Assembly (NCBI GenBank): GCA_038042445.1
Contig: JBBTED010000086.1
Location: forward strand, 1-23,355
From: Candidatus Firestoneibacteriota bacterium
GTDB lineage: Bacteria > Oederibacteriota > D2-FULL-39-29 > JBBTED01
Direction: 5' to 3'
Length of the DNA: 23,355 nt
Below are positions 1,270 to 22,791 of the stretch, piece after piece (the first letter of the stretch is position 1; each line of letters starts with the position of its first letter). Position numbers and translations under genes: made by a program. Below the pieces are notes generated by a model. It was given only the letters and a program-made list of their open reading frames with translations, was not told the DNA's origin and made no database searches.

Positions 1270-2484
1270 TTACGCTCCATATTTTTTTAATTTTAAACTA
1301 TGCGCTAATGCAAGTGGCATTATATTTAACGCATTTAAATGACCTAACCCGCCTTTATAACATTCACGTTCTGTCCATCTGCTCACACCATCAGAAATAA
1401 CATATTTAGATGACAAAAGAATTGGCACAGGATGCCAGCTATGTGCCTTTAAACGAGATGGAGTAGAATGATCTCCTGTTAGGACAAGCACATCAGGATT
1501 TAAATTTAAAATATCAGGCAGGCATCTATCAAAATCTTCTAACACAGCAACTTTTGCATCAAAATTTCCATCCTCACCAGAACTATCAGTTTTCTTAATA
1601 TGAAAATAAAAAAATTCAAAATTACTTAAATTCTCTTTTAATGTTTTTATCTCATCTCGTATTGTATCACCTGTTTGTAAAATTTCCATACCAACAAGTT
1701 TGGCTAATCCTTTATACATCGGATAAGTAGCTATAGCCGCAGATTTAACCTTATAAACATCCTGCATTTGAGGCAAATCTGGATATTTGGAAAACCCTCT
1801 CAGCAACATCATATTTGATGGCTTGAACTCCTTTAGAATATTTTTGGCCTGAGCCAAAAACTCATTAACAGCAATTGCTGTTATCTCACTATTACTATCT
1901 AATGCTTTTATTTCCTTTGATTGCAGTCCTTCTTTTTGTGGATCAGAATCAGAGAGATTTCCTCCTGCATTTTCCTTTCTGAATATAACTGAAGCTCTAT
2001 GTTCTTTTTCTGGTCGGACAAATATTTCAAAATTTTTTACTTTTATATTGCTTTCAAGCAACTGACACAATTCTTTGCATTTTTCAGTAGAAATTCTGCC
2101 TGCCCTTCTATCAGTAATAATTTCTTGTTCATCAACTGTGCAAAAATTAGCTCTGGATGCAATATCAGACTGTTTAATTTCAAAACCAATTCCAACAGCA
2201 CCTAAAATTCCTCTACCTATTTCATATTTTATTGGATCATACCCGAATAAAGCAAGATGAGCTGGACCACTTCCAGGAGTTATACCCGGTGCAATAGGAT
2301 ACGAAAACCCACACTGCGAAATTTTTGCAAGTTCATCCATATTTTTGGTATTAGCAGTCTCAAGTTCCGTCTTCCCTGTTTTCTCACTTGTAAGCCCGCC
2401 AAGACCATCAAGAACAACCAATACAATTTTAGCAGAATTAGAAATTGCAAGTTTTTCAATAAATTTTTGGTCAACAATATTCAT
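1270..2484 (-). CDS. apgM: 2,3-bisphosphoglycerate-independent phosphoglycerate mutase (ApgM type)
   Basis: LDGLGG, TELE, PGSGPAHL, GRG, DRRAGRI, GDHSTP..H motifs. Confidence 0.88.
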   Translation of the reverse strand: MNIVDQKFIEKLAISNSAKIVLVVLDGLGGLTSEKTGKTELETANTKNMDELAKISQCGFSYPIAPGITPGSGPAHLALFGYDPIKYEIGRGILGAVGIGFEIKQSDIASRANFCTVDEQEIITDRRAGRISTEKCKELCQLLESNIKVKNFEIFVRPEKEHRASVIFRKENAGGNLSDSDPQKEGLQSKEIKALDSNSEITAIAVNEFLAQAKNILKEFKPSNMMLLRGFSKYPDLPQMQDVYKVKSAAIATYPMYKGLAKLVGMEILQTGDTIRDEIKTLKENLSNFEFFYFHIKKTDSSGEDGNFDAKVAVLEDFDRCLPDILNLNPDVLVLTGDHSTPSRLKAHSWHPVPILLSSKYVISDGVSRWTERECYKGGLGHLNALNIMPLALAHSLKLKKYGA

Positions 2485-2529
2485 AATTTGATAATGATAA
2501 CAAAATTCGGATAAAAGTCAATTTAAAAA

Positions 2530-3603
2530 TTAGTTTTGGACTTCTATAAGTTTGTAATTTCTGTTTCCAAGACCTATTTTTTCTGCATGCAAAAGTTGAG
2601 GTGTGTGGTCAAGATTAGGATAAGCTGACTCATTAATTTTTTTTCCTGTTTCTTTTTCAATTAAATCAATTGATGCCTGATCAATAGCTACAGGATCATA
2701 AGAAGCAAGTATTCCAAGAGATTCCACAAATGGCTTTTGAACCCAAGTCATACAATCACAATCTTTTGTTACATCAATTACAAAATTAAAAAAAGCTGTT
2801 TTATTTTTTTTATCTATTACAGAGCCATAAGCATGCTCTGCAACTTTTTCCTGAAGTTCATTAGAAGAAACCCTGTAATTAAATCTTACTGCTTCATTTT
2901 TACATACAGCCAAACATTCTGCGCACCCAATACATTTAGCAGAAATAATAAATGCGGATTTCTCTTTCATTTTTATTGTATTCGCAGGACACCATTTTAC
3001 ACACAAACCACATTTTTTGCATTTACTTTCAACAATTTCAGGTAAAACTGAAGAATGCTGATTTAATTTTCCTTTCCTGCTTGAAGTCCCCATTCCAAGA
3101 TTTTTAATAGCACCTCCAAATCCTGCTGCAAGATGTCCTGTAGGATGTGAAATAACAAATAAAGCATTAGCCATAACTATTTCAGTTGCAACAGGAACTT
3201 TTTTGTAATATTTCCCGGAAATTTCCACTTCAATTTCATTTTTGCCAATTAAACCATCACTTATTATTACAGGTGCTCCAACATTTTCCATTGTGAATCC
3301 ATGCTTATGTGCCAGATGCAAATGGTCTACAGCATTTGACCTTGCTCCAGAATAAAGAGTGTTTGTATCTGTAAGAAATGGCTTGCCTTTGTTTTTCTTT
3401 ATTTTTTCAACAACCGGTGCAATTAAATATGGTTTAAGATACGTAGTATTTTTTTCTTCACCAAAATGAACTTTCACAGCAACTAAATCTTTTTCTTCTA
3501 TGCAACTTTTAAAACCCGCAGTATCAAATAATAAACCGATTTTTTGTGCGATAGAAATTTGGTTTTCGTTTTTTGATGTCTTTATAAAATATACAGAACT
3601 CAT
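2530..3603 (-). CDS. DUF362-family Fe-S protein with a 2x[4Fe-4S] ferredoxin insert
   Basis: VAVKVHFGE, TDTNTLY..R, GGAIKNLGMG, CKKCGLC..CP, CIGCAEC..C, DCDC, DPVAIDQAS. Confidence 0.88.
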   Translation of the reverse strand: MSSVYFIKTSKNENQISIAQKIGLLFDTAGFKSCIEEKDLVAVKVHFGEEKNTTYLKPYLIAPVVEKIKKNKGKPFLTDTNTLYSGARSNAVDHLHLAHKHGFTMENVGAPVIISDGLIGKNEIEVEISGKYYKKVPVATEIVMANALFVISHPTGHLAAGFGGAIKNLGMGTSSRKGKLNQHSSVLPEIVESKCKKCGLCVKWCPANTIKMKEKSAFIISAKCIGCAECLAVCKNEAVRFNYRVSSNELQEKVAEHAYGSVIDKKNKTAFFNFVIDVTKDCDCMTWVQKPFVESLGILASYDPVAIDQASIDLIEKETGKKINESAYPNLDHTPQLLHAEKIGLGNRNYKLIEVQN

Positions 3604-6114: not shown

Positions 6115-6164
6115 GTAATAGGTTAGCCATTATAAAAATTTACTTGGAATGGTTAACCTATTAC
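6115..6164. mobile_element. Minimal (empty) MITE-like element, GTAATAG-ended family
   Basis: GTAATAGGTTAGCCATT / AATGGTTAACCTATTAC inverted ends (16/17); same ends as the 15777-15920 element. Confidence 0.65.
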
Positions 6165-11479: not shown

Positions 11480-12379
11480 ATGCATCCCCCTTGGTTAAAA
11501 AAAAGGTTGTTTTGGTCTGCTGAATCTTCTAAAACTACTCAAATTCTACGTAATTTACACTTAAATACAGTTTGTGAAAATGCGCATTGTCCCAATATTA
11601 TTGAATGTTTTTCAAATAATACAGCTACTTTTCTTATCTTAGGTAATACCTGCACCCGTTCCTGTAAATTCTGTGCAATAGGAACTTCGCCAGACAAAAA
11701 AACAAATCCTGTAATTGATAATGAAGAACCCTATAGAATAGCAAATGCTGTTAAAGAATTAAATCTTACCCATGTTGTCATAACTTCTGTAACACGCGAT
11801 GATTTATCAGATGGCGGTGCAGAACAATTTGCGAATACAATTAAAGCAATACGAAAAATTACAGATAATATTATTATTGAAGTTTTAACTCCAGATTTCA
11901 AAGGTATAGCAAATTCTGTTAAAAAAGTCTTAGATGCAAATCCAAATGTTTTTGCACATAATATTGAAACTGTCCCACGTCTTTATAATTTAGCCAGATC
12001 TCAGGCGAATTATTTAACATCCCTTACGCTTTTGAAAATAGCAAAAAAAATGAATACTAATATTTACACTAAAAGTGGTATAATGTTAGGATTAGGAGAA
12101 ACCAAAGAAGAAGTATTACAAGTAATGTATAATTTACGCGAAATAGGATGTGATATTTTGACACTTGGCCAATACCTACAGCCATCTACACTTAATTTAA
12201 AAGTAGCTGAGTATATTAAACCGGAAATATTTGATGAATACAAAACAATAGGGATTTCTTGTGGATTTAAAGAAATTGTTTCCGGACCATTTGTCCGAAG
12301 TTCATATAATTTGGCAAAAATGAATCTTTTTACGAAAAAAGACACTGGATTCCCGACATTTGTCAGGCAAGATGCCTGA
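11480..12379 (+). CDS. lipA: Lipoyl synthase
   Basis: CENAHCPNIIEC (CX4CX5C), CTRSCKFC radical-SAM motif, HNIETV, GQYLQPS, RSSY. Confidence 0.95.
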   Translation: MHPPWLKKRLFWSAESSKTTQILRNLHLNTVCENAHCPNIIECFSNNTATFLILGNTCTRSCKFCAIGTSPDKKTNPVIDNEEPYRIANAVKELNLTHVVITSVTRDDLSDGGAEQFANTIKAIRKITDNIIIEVLTPDFKGIANSVKKVLDANPNVFAHNIETVPRLYNLARSQANYLTSLTLLKIAKKMNTNIYTKSGIMLGLGETKEEVLQVMYNLREIGCDILTLGQYLQPSTLNLKVAEYIKPEIFDEYKTIGISCGFKEIVSGPFVRSSYNLAKMNLFTKKDTGFPTFVRQDA

Positions 12380-12400
12380 TCTATTACATACAGGAATGAC
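12338..12400. repeat. Chimeric REP: CTGGATTCC..GGAATGAC unit interrupted by a TCAGGCAAGATGCCTGA hairpin
   Basis: AAAGACACTGGATTCCC is shared with the 8942 and 11316 copies. Confidence 0.75.
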
Positions 12401-14304: not shown

Positions 14305-14440
14305 TAATACAAACGCATGAAACAAGTTTGCAATTTTGTCATTTCGAGTGCGATAGCCCGTGGCAATCTCATAGTAAAAACGAGATTGCTTCACTTCGTT
14401 CGCAATGACAAACATCAAGACACATAATGCATTTGTATTA
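14305..14440. mobile_element. MITE-like shell (TAATACAAAYGCAT ends) enclosing a GTCATT.CGA..GCAATCTC REP doublet (14338-14409)
   Basis: 14-bp outer IR with 1 mismatch, terminal TA; inner GCAATCTC/GAGATTGC. Confidence 0.7.
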
Positions 14441-15670
14441 GTCGCCAACAAGAGAACCGAGTTCAAACATTGGCATAAACATTGCTACAACAATAGCTCC
14501 TATAGTAGCACCCATAAACGCCATAAGCAATGGTTCTATCATTGCTGTCAAACCTACAACTGCAGTATCTACTTCATCATCATAAAAATCCGCGGATTTT
14601 ATCAACATTTCATCAATTGCACCTGTCTCTTCACCTACAGAAATCATTTGTGAAACCATTGGAGGAAAAATTCCACTTGCCTTCAAAGGAGTTGATATAT
14701 TTTCACCTTCTCTTATACTATTTCTTGCTTTCATTACAGCCTCTTCAATAACCATATTACCTGCAGTTCTTGCAACTATTTCAAGTGCTTCCAATATTGG
14801 AACACCACTTTTAATTAACGTTCCAAGTGTTCTGGCAAATCGCGCAATTGCTACTTTTCTTAATAACATACCAAACACCGGCATTTTTAGCATAAGACCA
14901 TCCCACATTAATCCACCTTTTTTAGTCTTACGAAAACGTGAAAGTGCAATAAAACCAGAAATCACTAAACCAATAAATATCAGATAAAATATTGCATTTG
15001 ATTTTGATGGCGTAAGAAACTCACTTATTCCAAGTAATATTTTAGTAGGTAAAGGAAGCTCAGCGCCAAAACTTGAAAACACATCTTTAAATGTAGGTAT
15101 AACACCAACCAAAAGGAAAAACACAACAGCAATAGCTATTGAAGAAACAACAGCAGGATAAACCATTGCAGATTTAACTTTACGTTTAAGCGCATCTGCT
15201 TTTTCTAAATACCCTGAAAGTCTTTCTAAAATAGCATCAAGAATTCCAGCGCTTTCTCCTGCTTTTATCATATAAACATAAAGAGGATTAAAAATAGTTG
15301 GATGTTTTGCAAATGAATCTGAAAGAGTAGATCCACCAGCTATATCATCTCTGATTTTAGCTATAACTTGTTTTAATCCGGGATTTTCAAGTTGCTCCAC
15401 TATAATATTTAAACTCTGCAAAACAGGAAGACCTGCATTTATCATTGTAGCGAATTGCCGTGAAAAAACACTTAAATCCTTAGTAGAAGCTTTTGGCTTT
15501 TTTTTCAAAAAACCTAATAAAGGAAAACCTTTTTTTTGTATCTTTGAAGAAACGACTACCAACTGCTGAGCACGCAACTTTGTTACAAGCTCATGTTCAT
15601 TTGCCACCTCAAGAGTACCATTTACTATTGCACCTTGTGGGTTTTTTGCTTTATAATGATAAACCGGCAT
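14438..15670 (-). CDS. pilC: Type IV pilus platform protein PilC (GspF family)
   Basis: FSRQFATMINAGLP, AGESAGILD, KVKSAMVYP, VGEETG, IEP. Confidence 0.95.
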   Translation of the reverse strand: MPVYHYKAKNPQGAIVNGTLEVANEHELVTKLRAQQLVVVSSKIQKKGFPLLGFLKKKPKASTKDLSVFSRQFATMINAGLPVLQSLNIIVEQLENPGLKQVIAKIRDDIAGGSTLSDSFAKHPTIFNPLYVYMIKAGESAGILDAILERLSGYLEKADALKRKVKSAMVYPAVVSSIAIAVVFFLLVGVIPTFKDVFSSFGAELPLPTKILLGISEFLTPSKSNAIFYLIFIGLVISGFIALSRFRKTKKGGLMWDGLMLKMPVFGMLLRKVAIARFARTLGTLIKSGVPILEALEIVARTAGNMVIEEAVMKARNSIREGENISTPLKASGIFPPMVSQMISVGEETGAIDEMLIKSADFYDDEVDTAVVGLTAMIEPLLMAFMGATIGAIVVAMFMPMFELGSLVGD

Positions 15671-15693
15671 AAAATATTATCCCCCTAAAAAAC

Positions 15694-15769
15694 AGACTAT
15701 AGACTTCAAACTATAGACTACAGACTTTAAATCATAAATACATTCTCTTAGTCTAAAGTCTAATGTCTG
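15694..15769. repeat. Inverted pair of heptamer tandem arrays (AGACTWH)n
   Basis: agactat agacttc aaactat agactac agacttt, then the inverse tagtctaaagtctaatgtctg. Confidence 0.8.
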
Positions 15770-15776
15770 TTTTTTT

Positions 15777-15920
15777 GTAATAGATTAGCTATTCTAAGTA
15801 AATAATTTTTAAAATAGTTGTAGCTGCAAAGCGTTAGCTTTGCTTGTATTTGCAGAGCTTCGCTCTGCCGCTACAAAAACAGCAACAATTTAAATACATT
15901 TATAACCGCTATCCTATTAC
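15777..15920. mobile_element. GTAATAG-ended MITE with 8-bp target duplication, carrying a GTAG REP doublet (15820-15874)
   Basis: 21-bp imperfect TIRs (16/21); GTTTTTTT at 15769-15776 and 15921-15928. Confidence 0.75.
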
Positions 15921-15941
15921 GTTTTTTTGTCTGTCTTATTA

Positions 15942-17003
15942 CTATACTCCTTTAACCATACGCTGTAAATCCTTAGGATCAGTACTTCTCGCAATTATTT
16001 CATTATAAGTAACAAGCTGCTTCTGATATAAATCATAAAGTGTTTTATTCATTGTCTGCATCCCAGATTCCTGACTAGTCTGCATCACAGAATAAACCTG
16101 ATGCACTTTTTCTTCACGAATTAAATTACGTATTGCTGAATTCATAATCAAAATTTCACAGGCCAACACCCTTCCACTGGAATACGCCCTTGGCAATAAC
16201 TGCTGAGCAAATACTGCCTGTAAAACAAAAGAAAGCTGGGCTCTCACCTGACCCTGTTGATGCGGAGGAAATACATCAATTATCCTGTTTATTGACTGAA
16301 TTGCATCTGTTGTATGCAAAGTCGCAAAAACCAAATGTCCTGTTTCTCCTATACTCAAAGCAGCACTAATTGTTTCCAAATCCCGCATTTCTCCAATAAG
16401 TATAACATCAGGATCCTGTCTTAATACATGCCGCAATGCTTCAGTAAAAGTCTTACTATCAGCACCTATCTCACGTTGATTAACCATACTACTTTTATGT
16501 GTATGTATATATTCTATAGGATCCTCTATTGTAACTATGTGACATTTCCTATTGGTATTAATATAATCAATCATAGATGCCAATGTTGTAGATTTACCAC
16601 TTCCAGTAGGCCCTGTAACTAACACTAAACCTTTTGGGAATTTAACTATTTCACTAACAACAGCAGGCAAAGCAAGTTCTTCAAAAGTAGGAATACGAGT
16701 AGCAATATTTCTTAATGCAGCAGCTACAGCTCCTCTTTGTCTGAAAACATTCATCCTGACTCTACCCATACCTTGCATTCCAAATGACAAATCAAGTTCC
16801 TGCTCACGTTCAAATTTTTCTTTCTGGTCATCAGTTAAAATACTATAAATTATACTCTGACTTGTTTCTGGAGTTAATCTCTCTAATTCTGTTGGAACTA
16901 ATTCTCCGTCAATACGTAAAATAGGAGATGTGCCAGCAGTAATATGAAGATCTGAAGCATTCTTTTCAAAAAGCAATTTTAGCAATTCGTTTATTGTTGT
17001 CAT
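15942..17003 (-). CDS. pilT: Type IV pilus retraction ATPase PilT
   Basis: ASDLHI, GPTGSGKSTT, TIEDPIE, LRQDPDVILIGEMRD, ETGHLVFATLHT, AIRNLIRE. Confidence 0.96.
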   Translation of the reverse strand: MTTINELLKLLFEKNASDLHITAGTSPILRIDGELVPTELERLTPETSQSIIYSILTDDQKEKFEREQELDLSFGMQGMGRVRMNVFRQRGAVAAALRNIATRIPTFEELALPAVVSEIVKFPKGLVLVTGPTGSGKSTTLASMIDYINTNRKCHIVTIEDPIEYIHTHKSSMVNQREIGADSKTFTEALRHVLRQDPDVILIGEMRDLETISAALSIGETGHLVFATLHTTDAIQSINRIIDVFPPHQQGQVRAQLSFVLQAVFAQQLLPRAYSSGRVLACEILIMNSAIRNLIREEKVHQVYSVMQTSQESGMQTMNKTLYDLYQKQLVTYNEIIARSTDPKDLQRMVKGV

Positions 17004-18863: not shown

Positions 18864-18914
18864 GTAGGGGCGAGTTTACTCGCCCAGTAAATGGGCAGGT
18901 AAACCTGCCCCTAC
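18864..18914. repeat. GTAG REP doublet (REPIN-like)
   Basis: GTAGGGGCGAGTTTACTCGCCC ... GGGCAGGTAAACCTGCCCCTAC. Confidence 0.88.
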
Positions 18915-21381: not shown

Positions 21382-22791
21382 ATGAAACTAGGTCTAAAGT
21401 GGAAAATAACTCTTCTTATTGTTTCTTTACTTTTAATTGTAGTTATTGCTGTCCGCTTCATAGTTGTTGAAAAAATGCGATTAGCATTAACAAAAGAAGT
21501 AATTGAGAGTGGTAAATCAATTGCAAAAAATATGGCAAGACCCACAAAAGATGCATTACTTGGTGGAGAATTAGGGCCTGATTATCTAACTTTAGGAATA
21601 CTTGCCAGCCAGGCAACAGAACAGACAAATATTGTTTATGCATATGTTATAGACTCAGAAAATATAGTTCGTGCATATGCCGATAAATCGGCAACTACAA
21701 AAGCTGAAGAAGTGCGAAATAAACCATATAAAACCCCACAAGAATTAATTGAATATTCCAATGAAGGAGGAGTTAGAATTTTAAAAGATAATATAAATGG
21801 TATTTATGAGGTAGAAGTTCCTCTTAAAGTTGCTGAAAAAGATATAGGAAAAGTGAAAATTGGTTTATCTCAGGAAGGAATAAAAAACGCTGTGCGACAA
21901 ACTGTAAACATAGCAGTTAGAGTAACTTTAGGTATTTTAGCTATTGGAATAATTGGTGCCTTTTTGCTTGGCAATTATCTGGTTGGCCCAATAAAGAATC
22001 TGTTGGAAGGAGTTACAGAAATAGGAACTGGAAATTTTGACTACAAAGTAGCTGTTCAATCCCGTGACGAACTTGGAGACTTAACAAATGCATTCAATAA
22101 AATGGCAAAGGGATTAAAAGAGCGGGAAACTATAAAAGATGCCTTTAGCAGATATGTATCACATGACGTATTAAATCAGGTTTTAAAAAATAAAATACAA
22201 CTTGGTGGAGAAAGAAAATTAGCTACTATATTATTTTCAGATATCAGAGATTTCACAACAATGGCAGAAAGTTTAAAACCAGAATTAGTCGTAGAAATTC
22301 TAAATGAATATTTTACAGTTATGACAGACGTGATATTCAAGAATGAAGGCACAGTTGATAAATTTATAGGTGATGGAATCCTTGCAGTATTTGGTTTACC
22401 TATTGCGCATGAAGATGACCCAAAAAGAACAGTCCAAGCTGCAATAGAAATGCAAAGTGAATTAAACAAACTACATGAAAAATGGAAAAACGAAGGTAAA
22501 CCGCAGTTTAAAATCGGAATAGGAATAAACACTACTGAAGTAATTGTAGGAAACATCGGCTCTACAAAAAGAATGGAATATACTGTTATAGGTGATGGTG
22601 TAAATACAACTGCAAGAATAGAAAGTTTAAATAAAAACTATGGCACTACAATATTAATCAGTGACAATACATACGACATTGTAAAAGATTATTTTGTATT
22701 CAATGACTTAGGAGAAGCACAGGTAAAAGGCAAAAAAGACACTGTGCATATCTACGAAGTTAAAGGCTACAAGCAGGAAAATAAAACATAA
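21382..22791 (+). CDS. Membrane class III adenylate cyclase (TM-periplasmic sensor-TM-HAMP-cyclase)
   Basis: SRDELGDL HAMP, FSDIRDFT, DKFIGD (Lys, ATP-type), EYTVIGDGVNTTARIE; ATG 21382 preferred because the 21349 start lies in a repeat. Confidence 0.92.
   Translation: MKLGLKWKITLLIVSLLLIVVIAVRFIVVEKMRLALTKEVIESGKSIAKNMARPTKDALLGGELGPDYLTLGILASQATEQTNIVYAYVIDSENIVRAYADKSATTKAEEVRNKPYKTPQELIEYSNEGGVRILKDNINGIYEVEVPLKVAEKDIGKVKIGLSQEGIKNAVRQTVNIAVRVTLGILAIGIIGAFLLGNYLVGPIKNLLEGVTEIGTGNFDYKVAVQSRDELGDLTNAFNKMAKGLKERETIKDAFSRYVSHDVLNQVLKNKIQLGGERKLATILFSDIRDFTTMAESLKPELVVEILNEYFTVMTDVIFKNEGTVDKFIGDGILAVFGLPIAHEDDPKRTVQAAIEMQSELNKLHEKWKNEGKPQFKIGIGINTTEVIVGNIGSTKRMEYTVIGDGVNTTARIESLNKNYGTTILISDNTYDIVKDYFVFNDLGEAQVKGKKDTVHIYEVKGYKQENKT

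Follow-up and report, generated by a model that had tools for sequence, protein, structure and literature searches.

Composites in which a REP lies inside a MITE have a single described precedent, QMITE2 of Coxiella burnetii, in the literature surveyed, whose coverage of subscription journals was thin. As excerpted, the account of QMITE2 by Wachter et al. 2018 describes elements of 150-190 bp with inverted ends of 17-31 nt, variable direct repeats of 7-11 nt and a GTAG REP core, alongside smaller REP-only versions that have neither ends nor direct repeats (PMC5896051). In species with multiple REP families each family has its own gene, according to the consulted portion of Di Nocera et al. 2013 (PMC3733652), and the genome examined here is alike in this respect. 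Modular intergenic stacks of REP hairpins and linkers are described for E. coli BIMEs and other mosaic REP clusters (PMC3184786, in excerpt), and 8-bp direct repeats for the IS66 members ISPpa5a and ISPpa7 of Paracoccus (PMC3281130, in excerpt).

The locus considered here combines features of all of these. The window, i.e. the whole stretch of DNA analysed (23,355 nucleotides), is the complete contig C86 of a metagenome-assembled genome (MAG) of 2.81 Mb in 181 contigs, with 33% GC, 90% completeness and 2.2% contamination; given such an origin, copies of the element could derive from mixed strains. A 144-bp element occupies the spacer between genes resembling pilT and pilC, and a 50-bp relative lies in the same window:

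6115-6164, no strand assigned: cargo-less shell copy of 50 bp, with a 27-nt left-type end (minus strand) and a 23-nt right end
14438-15670, minus strand: PilC-like gene with T2SSF domains (PF00482, E 6.8e-66)
15769-15776, no strand assigned: left target-site duplication, 8 bp, GTTTTTTT, 8/8 identical to 15921-15928
15777-15803, plus strand: left shell end (inverted repeat plus AAGTAAAT extension), GTAATAGATTAGCTATTCTAAGTAAAT, PWM score 29.6
15804-15819, plus strand: left linker from shell end to REP doublet, common to the sibling copy C21:41722-41840
15820-15874, plus strand: REP1 doublet (REPIN) of 55 bp with GTAG heads outward, from REP-family matches and fold
15820-15843, 15844-15851 and 15852-15874: REP-a, spacer and inverted REP-b of that doublet, with GTAG motif matches at 15820-15832 (plus) and 15862-15874 (minus)
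15875-15899, plus strand: right linker, a 92% match to the solitary right-end fragment C7:6737-6776
15900-15920, minus strand: right shell end, GCGGTT variant, TTTATAACCGCTATCCTATTAC, with the minus-strand reading GTAATAGGATAGCGGTTATAA, PWM score 24.0
15921-15928, no strand assigned: right target-site duplication, 8 bp, GTTTTTTT, 8/8 against the left copy
15942-17003, minus strand: PilT-like ATPase gene (T2SSE; PF00437, E 2.2e-47)

We consider it highly probable that 15777-15920 is a MITE whose ends come from both ends of an IS66-family insertion sequence (IS), and whose core is a REPIN of the family belonging to a RAYT gene on contig C63. Re-reading of the sequence recovered all that the preliminary description had placed there: the terminal inverted repeats, the 8-bp direct repeat on both sides and the GTAG REP doublet within. 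By repeat search the 21-nt terminal arms (15777-15797 and 15900-15920) are 76% complementary, the inverted ends overall spanning 21-27 nt, and the inner REP arms (15818-15833 and 15861-15876) are 88% complementary. Folded as DNA, the doublet (15820-15875) reaches -16.4 kcal/mol (z -4.45), and the entire 144-bp strand forms one nested hairpin at -24.3 kcal/mol (z -3.7). The element is non-coding, no ORF of at least 80 aa being present within 15671-15941. Contigs of individual sequencing runs break inside the REP doublet; those of runs X3 and X4 hold flank plus element with zero differences, and none of the contigs of runs X3, X4, X6 and X10 contains an empty-site joint over 15300-16400, a type of evidence that cannot exclude an empty allele.

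Inverted repeats of the form TAGACT/AGTCT (15696-15768, 20-nt arms, 80% complementary) adjoin the left duplication. Comparable sequence comes after the solitary left-end fragment C27:90964, and copies genome-wide are few; a sizeable family of this repeat was rejected, as its motif counts equal those of controls. Free REPs stand at 234-253, 12362-12385, 14384-14407, 18864-18914 and 21679-21698 of the window (two of REP2, one each of REP5 and REP3, and a REP4 doublet), so that this 23-kb contig has members of every one of the genome's five REP families. REP-a followed by TTGTATTT (15826-15843, plus strand) scores as the sole terminator-like site within 15600-16000, on the strand that does not encode the pil genes.

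Evidence that the ends belong to a mobile family comes from their number and from their flanks. The bare heptamer GTAATAG has 637 matches in the genome, about what base composition predicts by our own arithmetic, so it is the longer end that counts. The 21-mer end consensus GTAATAGGTTAGCCATTCTAA (family end consensus GTAAYAGRTTAGCCATTCTAA) matched 29, 44 and 68 times at up to 3, 4 and 5 mismatches, against 0, 1 and 19 in the reversed genome, and a weight matrix of the end, applied at a score of at least 14, returned 67 matches from the 2.8-Mb MAG compared with 5 from the control, giving the end pairs beyond the window that the preliminary description had anticipated. It had also allowed that the poly-T match, being of low complexity, could be due to chance. 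When the 8 bases on each side of 15 convergent end pairs were compared, 8/15 pairs agreed at 7/8 positions or better (seven of them perfectly), compared with 2/210 mismatched left/right flank pairs used as control; with duplications of such varied sequence, the target-site duplication is real. The seven perfect duplications are CTCGTCTT, CATTTAAA, GAAAAATA, AACTATTT, GTTTTTTT, CTTAATAC and GTTTTTTA, and the duplicated pairs include REP1-loaded copies as well as the REP2-loaded C27:91234-91409 (AACTATTT) and the REP3-loaded C155:12178-12283 (CTTAATAC). A clear duplication is missing in the other 7/15 pairs, among which that on C147 (ACCCTCTT) is offset by 2 nt and that on C72 agrees at 6/8. The pilT-pilC element shows what is expected of a MITE: inverted ends, an 8-bp duplication of variable sequence, a small non-coding multicopy body and a matching autonomous IS.

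That autonomous IS was sought in several places. Ends beginning GTAA are a trait of the IS66 family, and since the shell ends start with GTAA and are bordered by 8-bp duplications, this family was suspected as the parent. An element of 2,075 bp on a metagenome contig (L085:1447-3521) has the ends GTAATAGGTAAGCAATCCTT and GTAATAGTTTAGCCATCCTG (longer reading GTAATAGGTAAGCAATCCTTAAAA and GTAATAGTTTAGCCATCCTGAAAA) and encodes a 496-aa transposase (ORF 1530-3020, minus strand; PF03050 DDE_Tnp_IS66, E 7.4e-36) and a second, 108-aa ORF with DUF6788 (orfA). Its right end, GTAATAGTTTAGCCATCCTGAAA, agrees by eye at 22/23 positions with the right end of the MITE copies in 'candidate division WOR-3' MAGs. 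No duplication borders L085 itself (AAATTTAA and GGATGGTT). A second IS copy, L086, has an orfA 96% identical, terminates at the same CTATTAC and continues into a different flank. When the L085 transposase was searched against the genome, its residues 442-472 matched C6:37224-37316 with 65-69% identity (E 9e-5 and 1e-4), a short match of 29-31 residues with stop codons after it. Some 125 bp separate this relic from a lone end (C6:37441-37461), towards which it is oriented with the geometry seen in L085, so that the genome contains a degraded end piece of the parent IS. The autonomous IS with the same ends that the preliminary description called for has thus been located in metagenome contigs and, as a relic, at home; no intact transposase with shell ends was found in the assembly of this 90% complete MAG.

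Other candidate partners were set aside. The sole PF03050 gene of the genome, on contig C153, has different ends (GTACTTATTAAGCT) and lies beside Ribosomal_L35Ae and L16/L10e genes (L001:1-2707) that we take to be archaeal-type; C153 probably entered the MAG as a contaminant. An ISL3 transposase gene cut by a contig end (C143:12130-12840) has an end, GGTTCTTTCGTATTT, unrelated to the shell, a DDE_Tnp_1 gene on C40 has no shell-like ends, and searches of the genome with PF12762 and PF00872 gave no match. IS66 genes occur in 10/99 genomes of the phylum sample, this genome included, and none of them has shell-like ends, one having GTAACGTAAGCG ends. Three wide end pairs were rejected as full IS copies: L047 brackets an 800-aa ORF resembling a TonB-dependent-receptor-like outer-membrane protein by sequence reading alone, and the ORFs bracketed in L071 and L083 read as housekeeping genes by translation alone. 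Nine ORFs beside seven of the lone ends in genomes G099 and G100 matched no transposase family in Pfam. L060:177-362 and L082:600-746 each hold roughly 85 nt from the right end of the IS (the orfA side in L085), after which comes unrelated sequence that has no transposase match, and these two may be intermediate deletion forms on the way from IS to MITE.

The shell also occurs outside this genome. The exact 21-mer is found in two 'candidate division WOR-3' MAGs (48 and 20 ends), where the cargo of the 152-bp copies is a GTAGTTGC...GCAACTAC doublet and duplications were seen by eye at 6/7 loci, or 5/6 distinct sites; the REP type of this doublet has 127 and 58 matches there, many of them far from any shell end. 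The 152-bp copies (L009:3001-3152) differ from 119-bp copies (L040:101-219) by a 33-bp hairpin inserted in the loop of one REP, which is a third layer of nesting. Across 41 genomes the end pattern was present in two, this one included, and the other has only two copies, each with 2 mismatches. A first metagenome scan with the strict 21-mer returned nothing; a looser end pattern returned 39 loci, classified by eye as follows:

15/39 loci: CCCTCCC/GGGAGGG hairpin pair, non-GTAG, the commonest cargo
12/39 loci: GTAG doublets, often with further stacked modules
4/39 loci: IS-type ends
1/39 loci: cargo-less copy of 67 bp
7/39 loci: other or unclear

The tie between shell and RAYT is not exclusive, given that the commonest metagenome cargo is a non-GTAG hairpin pair. 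Duplications agreeing at 7/8 positions or better border 14/23 script-called metagenome pairs; among the nine pairs below that level are five doubtful pairs of 186-419 bp and two with a missing left flank. L066 and L092 hold the same two-doublet composite with different duplications, L092 with an extra 31-bp insert. The largest stack, L070:751-1120, places four stacked hairpin modules in 370 bp between perfect duplications (GGCAATTA), and L090:165-427 consists of two shells in tandem.

Taken further, such variety would make the IS66-type shell an all-purpose carrier of hairpin repeats and a landing pad for them, with at least six cargos and stacks up to 370 bp, a tentative idea that we regard as rather less likely than otherwise. 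The cargos would include REPINs of four or five RAYT systems together with non-GTAG hairpins, and the single-stranded loop of a minimal palindromic shell would be a preferred target for HUH insertion. If this were true, loaded and cargo-less copies would naturally preserve the states before and after REPIN insertion, an event that to our knowledge has never been directly seen, and REP1 would persist chiefly by hitch-hiking on a DDE transposon.

Genome-wide counts of each REP family, with matches in the reversed genome as control, were:

REP1 (GTAGCNGCARAGC): 66 matches, control 3
REP2 (GTAGTTGCYGATNNATCRGC): 184 matches, control 0
REP3: 12 matches, control 0
REP4 (GTAGGGGC): 91 matches, control 11
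REP5: 53 matches, control 0

A REP stands within 100 bp inward of 41/67 shell ends (REP1 at 19, REP2 at 16, REP3 at 3, REP4 at 2 and REP5 at 1) and outward of 0/67, one type of shell thus carrying at least five unrelated REP families. Conversely, shells bear 23/66 matches of REP1, 20/184 of REP2, 3/12 of REP3, 2/91 of REP4 and 2/53 of REP5. Profile search with PF01797 identified five Y1_Tnp genes in the genome:

C63:23635-24243: Y1/RAYT gene flanked on both sides by REP1, with five REP1 matches (PF01797, E 4e-11)
C59:5329-5787: Y1 gene, flanking repeat REP5
C11:20005-20529: Y1 gene, flanking repeat REP4
C63:8398-8664: Y1 gene, flanking repeat REP2
C74:19400-19933: Y1 gene, flanking repeat another palindrome

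No shell end was found near any of these five genes, the best PWM scores around the C63 RAYT being negative, so the REP families carried as cargo exist independently of the shell; the link between GTAG REPINs and RAYTs, given as known in the preliminary description, has its local counterpart in a REP1 that flanks its own Y1/RAYT gene outside any shell. At C63:8398-8772 (L005:1150-1875, minus strand) a RAYT-like gene reads in frame through REP-encoded residues into a very long frame downstream, open for 1382 aa in the genome search, which could be a fusion, a read-through or a missing stop.

This distribution bears on an unlikely reversal of the order, in which the MITE came first and the free REP doublets are what is left of MITEs after truncation and loss of their ends. 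Such a reading would accommodate the 12/18 REP1 doublets that lie inside shells (decayed copy C21:41757 included) and the roughly 10 nt of left linker that the free doublet C21:10595 shares with the 141-bp loaded copies, and it is the view that the authors of QMITE2 take of their REP-only copies in the excerpted text (PMC5896051). It fits poorly, however, with a C63 RAYT gene that has REP1 on both sides and no shell end near, with at least five unrelated REP families in one shell, with the low shell-borne fractions of REP2, REP4 and REP5 given above (20/184, 2/91 and 2/53), and with the remaining free REP1 doublets, 5/6, whose flanks are unrelated to the shell and which share with shell-borne doublets only GTAG...CTAC.

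The preferred reading, a REPIN carried within a shell of IS66 origin, is strengthened by copies in which shell and cargo have moved together. Six loaded copies of 141 bp (three on C27, the others on C147, C170 and C176) are 92-99% identical across ends, linkers and doublet and have six different duplications, and such near-identity at separately duplicated sites argues that shell and cargo are copied as one unit; loaded copies with common cargo and variable 8-bp duplications, which the preliminary description named as a check on itself, therefore exist. The 144-bp element has its own relatives: a sibling with decayed ends at C21:41722-41840 (95% over 122 nt), a related form at C72:62569-62720 and the solitary end fragments C7:6737-6776 (right) and C27:90964 (left). 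Among REP1-loaded copies with both ends readable, 8/9 have the GTAATAG end by REP-a and the GTAACAG end by REP-b, with 15777-15920 as the one exception. Uniform orientation of this kind points to a single capture of REP1 followed by spread, as opposed to repeated insertion.

The same copies weigh against a very improbable course of events without joint mobility at this site, namely that a shell without cargo entered the pilT-pilC spacer and produced the duplication, and that the RAYT later added the REPIN to it in place. A cargo-less shell does stand in the same window (6115-6164), and both REP1 and its RAYT are present in the genome. Yet shell, linkers and doublet recur together at C21:41722-41840 and in related form at C72:62569-62720, which makes the composite older than the pilT-pilC insertion, and REP1 cargo keeps one orientation in 8/9 shells. 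The last rival, that the whole 144-bp palindrome is a long REPIN-like unit moved by an HUH transposase with the GTTTTTTT pair as a chance match, can draw on the single nested hairpin (-24.3 kcal/mol, z -3.7) and on the frequency of T-runs at 33% GC, but has next to no chance of being correct against varied duplications in 8/15 pairs versus 2/210 controls and in other genomes too, ends that match an IS66-family DDE element and five Y1 genes of which none has a shell end beside it.

The 50-bp copy at 6115-6164 requires separate comment. It folds into a hairpin of -11.5 kcal/mol (z -5.6), has the CCATT variant in both ends, and matches the GCGGTT-type right end of the 144-bp element (3 mismatches/22) hardly better than the left end of that element (4/22). 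The preliminary description saw in it the same two asymmetric ends and no cargo, an empty sibling of the loaded element. Both the ends and the emptiness stand, but the asymmetry of the outer ends barely discriminates; the shell is clearly asymmetric in its inner extensions (AAGTAAAT versus TTATAAA). The copy is bordered by no duplication, its flanks AAATTAGA and CATCTGCC agreeing at 2/8. It retains the left extension AAGTAAAT(TTTTA), which is common to REP2-loaded copies, and its junction with the right end falls in a TTTT(A) present at both borders, with no remnant of cargo. Two cargo-less copies elsewhere are instructive. One of them, 73 bp long (G099:C3:77945-78017, duplication AAATAAAA), can be aligned with loaded copies, retains the final bases of the doublet (CAACGAC for CAACTAC) and has a gap bordered on both sides by AAATCAA; it is, judging by this alignment, a deletion product of a loaded copy. 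The 67-bp copy, L077, is compatible with a loss bordered by ATT/TT and likewise looks like a deletion product. As both appear to have lost their cargo, 6115-6164 is somewhat better read as a secondary loss than as an unloaded ancestor, which qualifies its description as an empty sibling: it is a cargo-less shell, though perhaps not a progenitor.

Together, these results suggest the following mechanism. An IS66-type DDE transposase supplied in trans would recognise the GTAAYAG... ends and move the whole unit, so that the REPIN inside hitch-hikes; at this locus the unit entered the spacer between pilT and pilC and duplicated 8 bp of the target, and across the family shell and cargo have been copied jointly to new sites. 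As 12/18 REP1 doublets are shell-borne, transport in the shell would be the main route by which this doublet has multiplied. Acquisition of cargo looks rare, to judge from the single orientation of REP1 in 8/9 copies. The cargo probably entered in one of two ways, through a RAYT-type insertion into the loop that a palindromic shell leaves single-stranded or as filler DNA captured when gap repair was aborted, and a longer foldable spacer may ease the pairing of ends relative to the 50-bp shell. The two-tier non-autonomous element first proposed, a REPIN in a DDE-mobilised shell, accordingly has the support of the family, the duplications and the IS66 partner, with the mode of cargo entry its inferred component.

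Several consequences follow for how such loci are viewed. The composite joins two classes of selfish DNA that depend on unrelated enzymes, the shell on a DDE transposase and the REPs on an HUH tyrosine transposase, and its layering helps to explain the dense, nested intergenic palindromes of uncultured groundwater bacteria. With an IS66-family parent named, trans-mobilisation becomes testable, and the defined junctions allow the rules of REPIN insertion or capture to be read. In annotation, these stacks are best treated as layered mobile litter and not as purpose-built regulatory hairpins, whilst shell stacks inside operons, as here between pilT and pilC, may influence the fate of transcripts.

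Set against known systems, the shell family shares the 8-bp duplication with IS66 members, although the window element is only 144 bp and non-coding. Classical IS66 elements have three ORFs (tnpA, tnpB and tnpC), whereas L085 has a DUF6788 ORF and one transposase ORF. Modular intergenic stacking of REP hairpins is common to BIMEs and to the shell cargo described here; neither IS-type ends nor target duplications are known from BIMEs. Nor do we know of IS-type terminal inverted repeats or target duplication in classical REPINs, and unlike these the present doublet rides inside another element. Its core (15820-15874) is likewise made of two inverted GTAG-headed hairpins, as in the REPINs described in the portions consulted of Bertels & Rainey 2011 (PMC3116915, PMC3337134), and here too a Y1/HUH transposase gene has copies of this REP beside it. 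The nearest likeness, drawn at the level of architecture and from an excerpted source, is with QMITE2, which similarly places inverted ends and direct repeats around a GTAG REP and has REP-only copies elsewhere. In that excerpt, its direct repeats are mostly 9 nt as against 8 nt here, its cargo is one REP type as against at least five cargo families, and no parent IS is named (PMC5896051), whereas the shell ends match an IS66-family element. Within literature that covered subscription journals thinly, no account was found of one shell with many REP cargos or of an IS66 parent. The layered REP-in-MITE design is therefore already known from Coxiella; what is new is that the shell has an IS66 partner and that its cargos are many and interchangeable.
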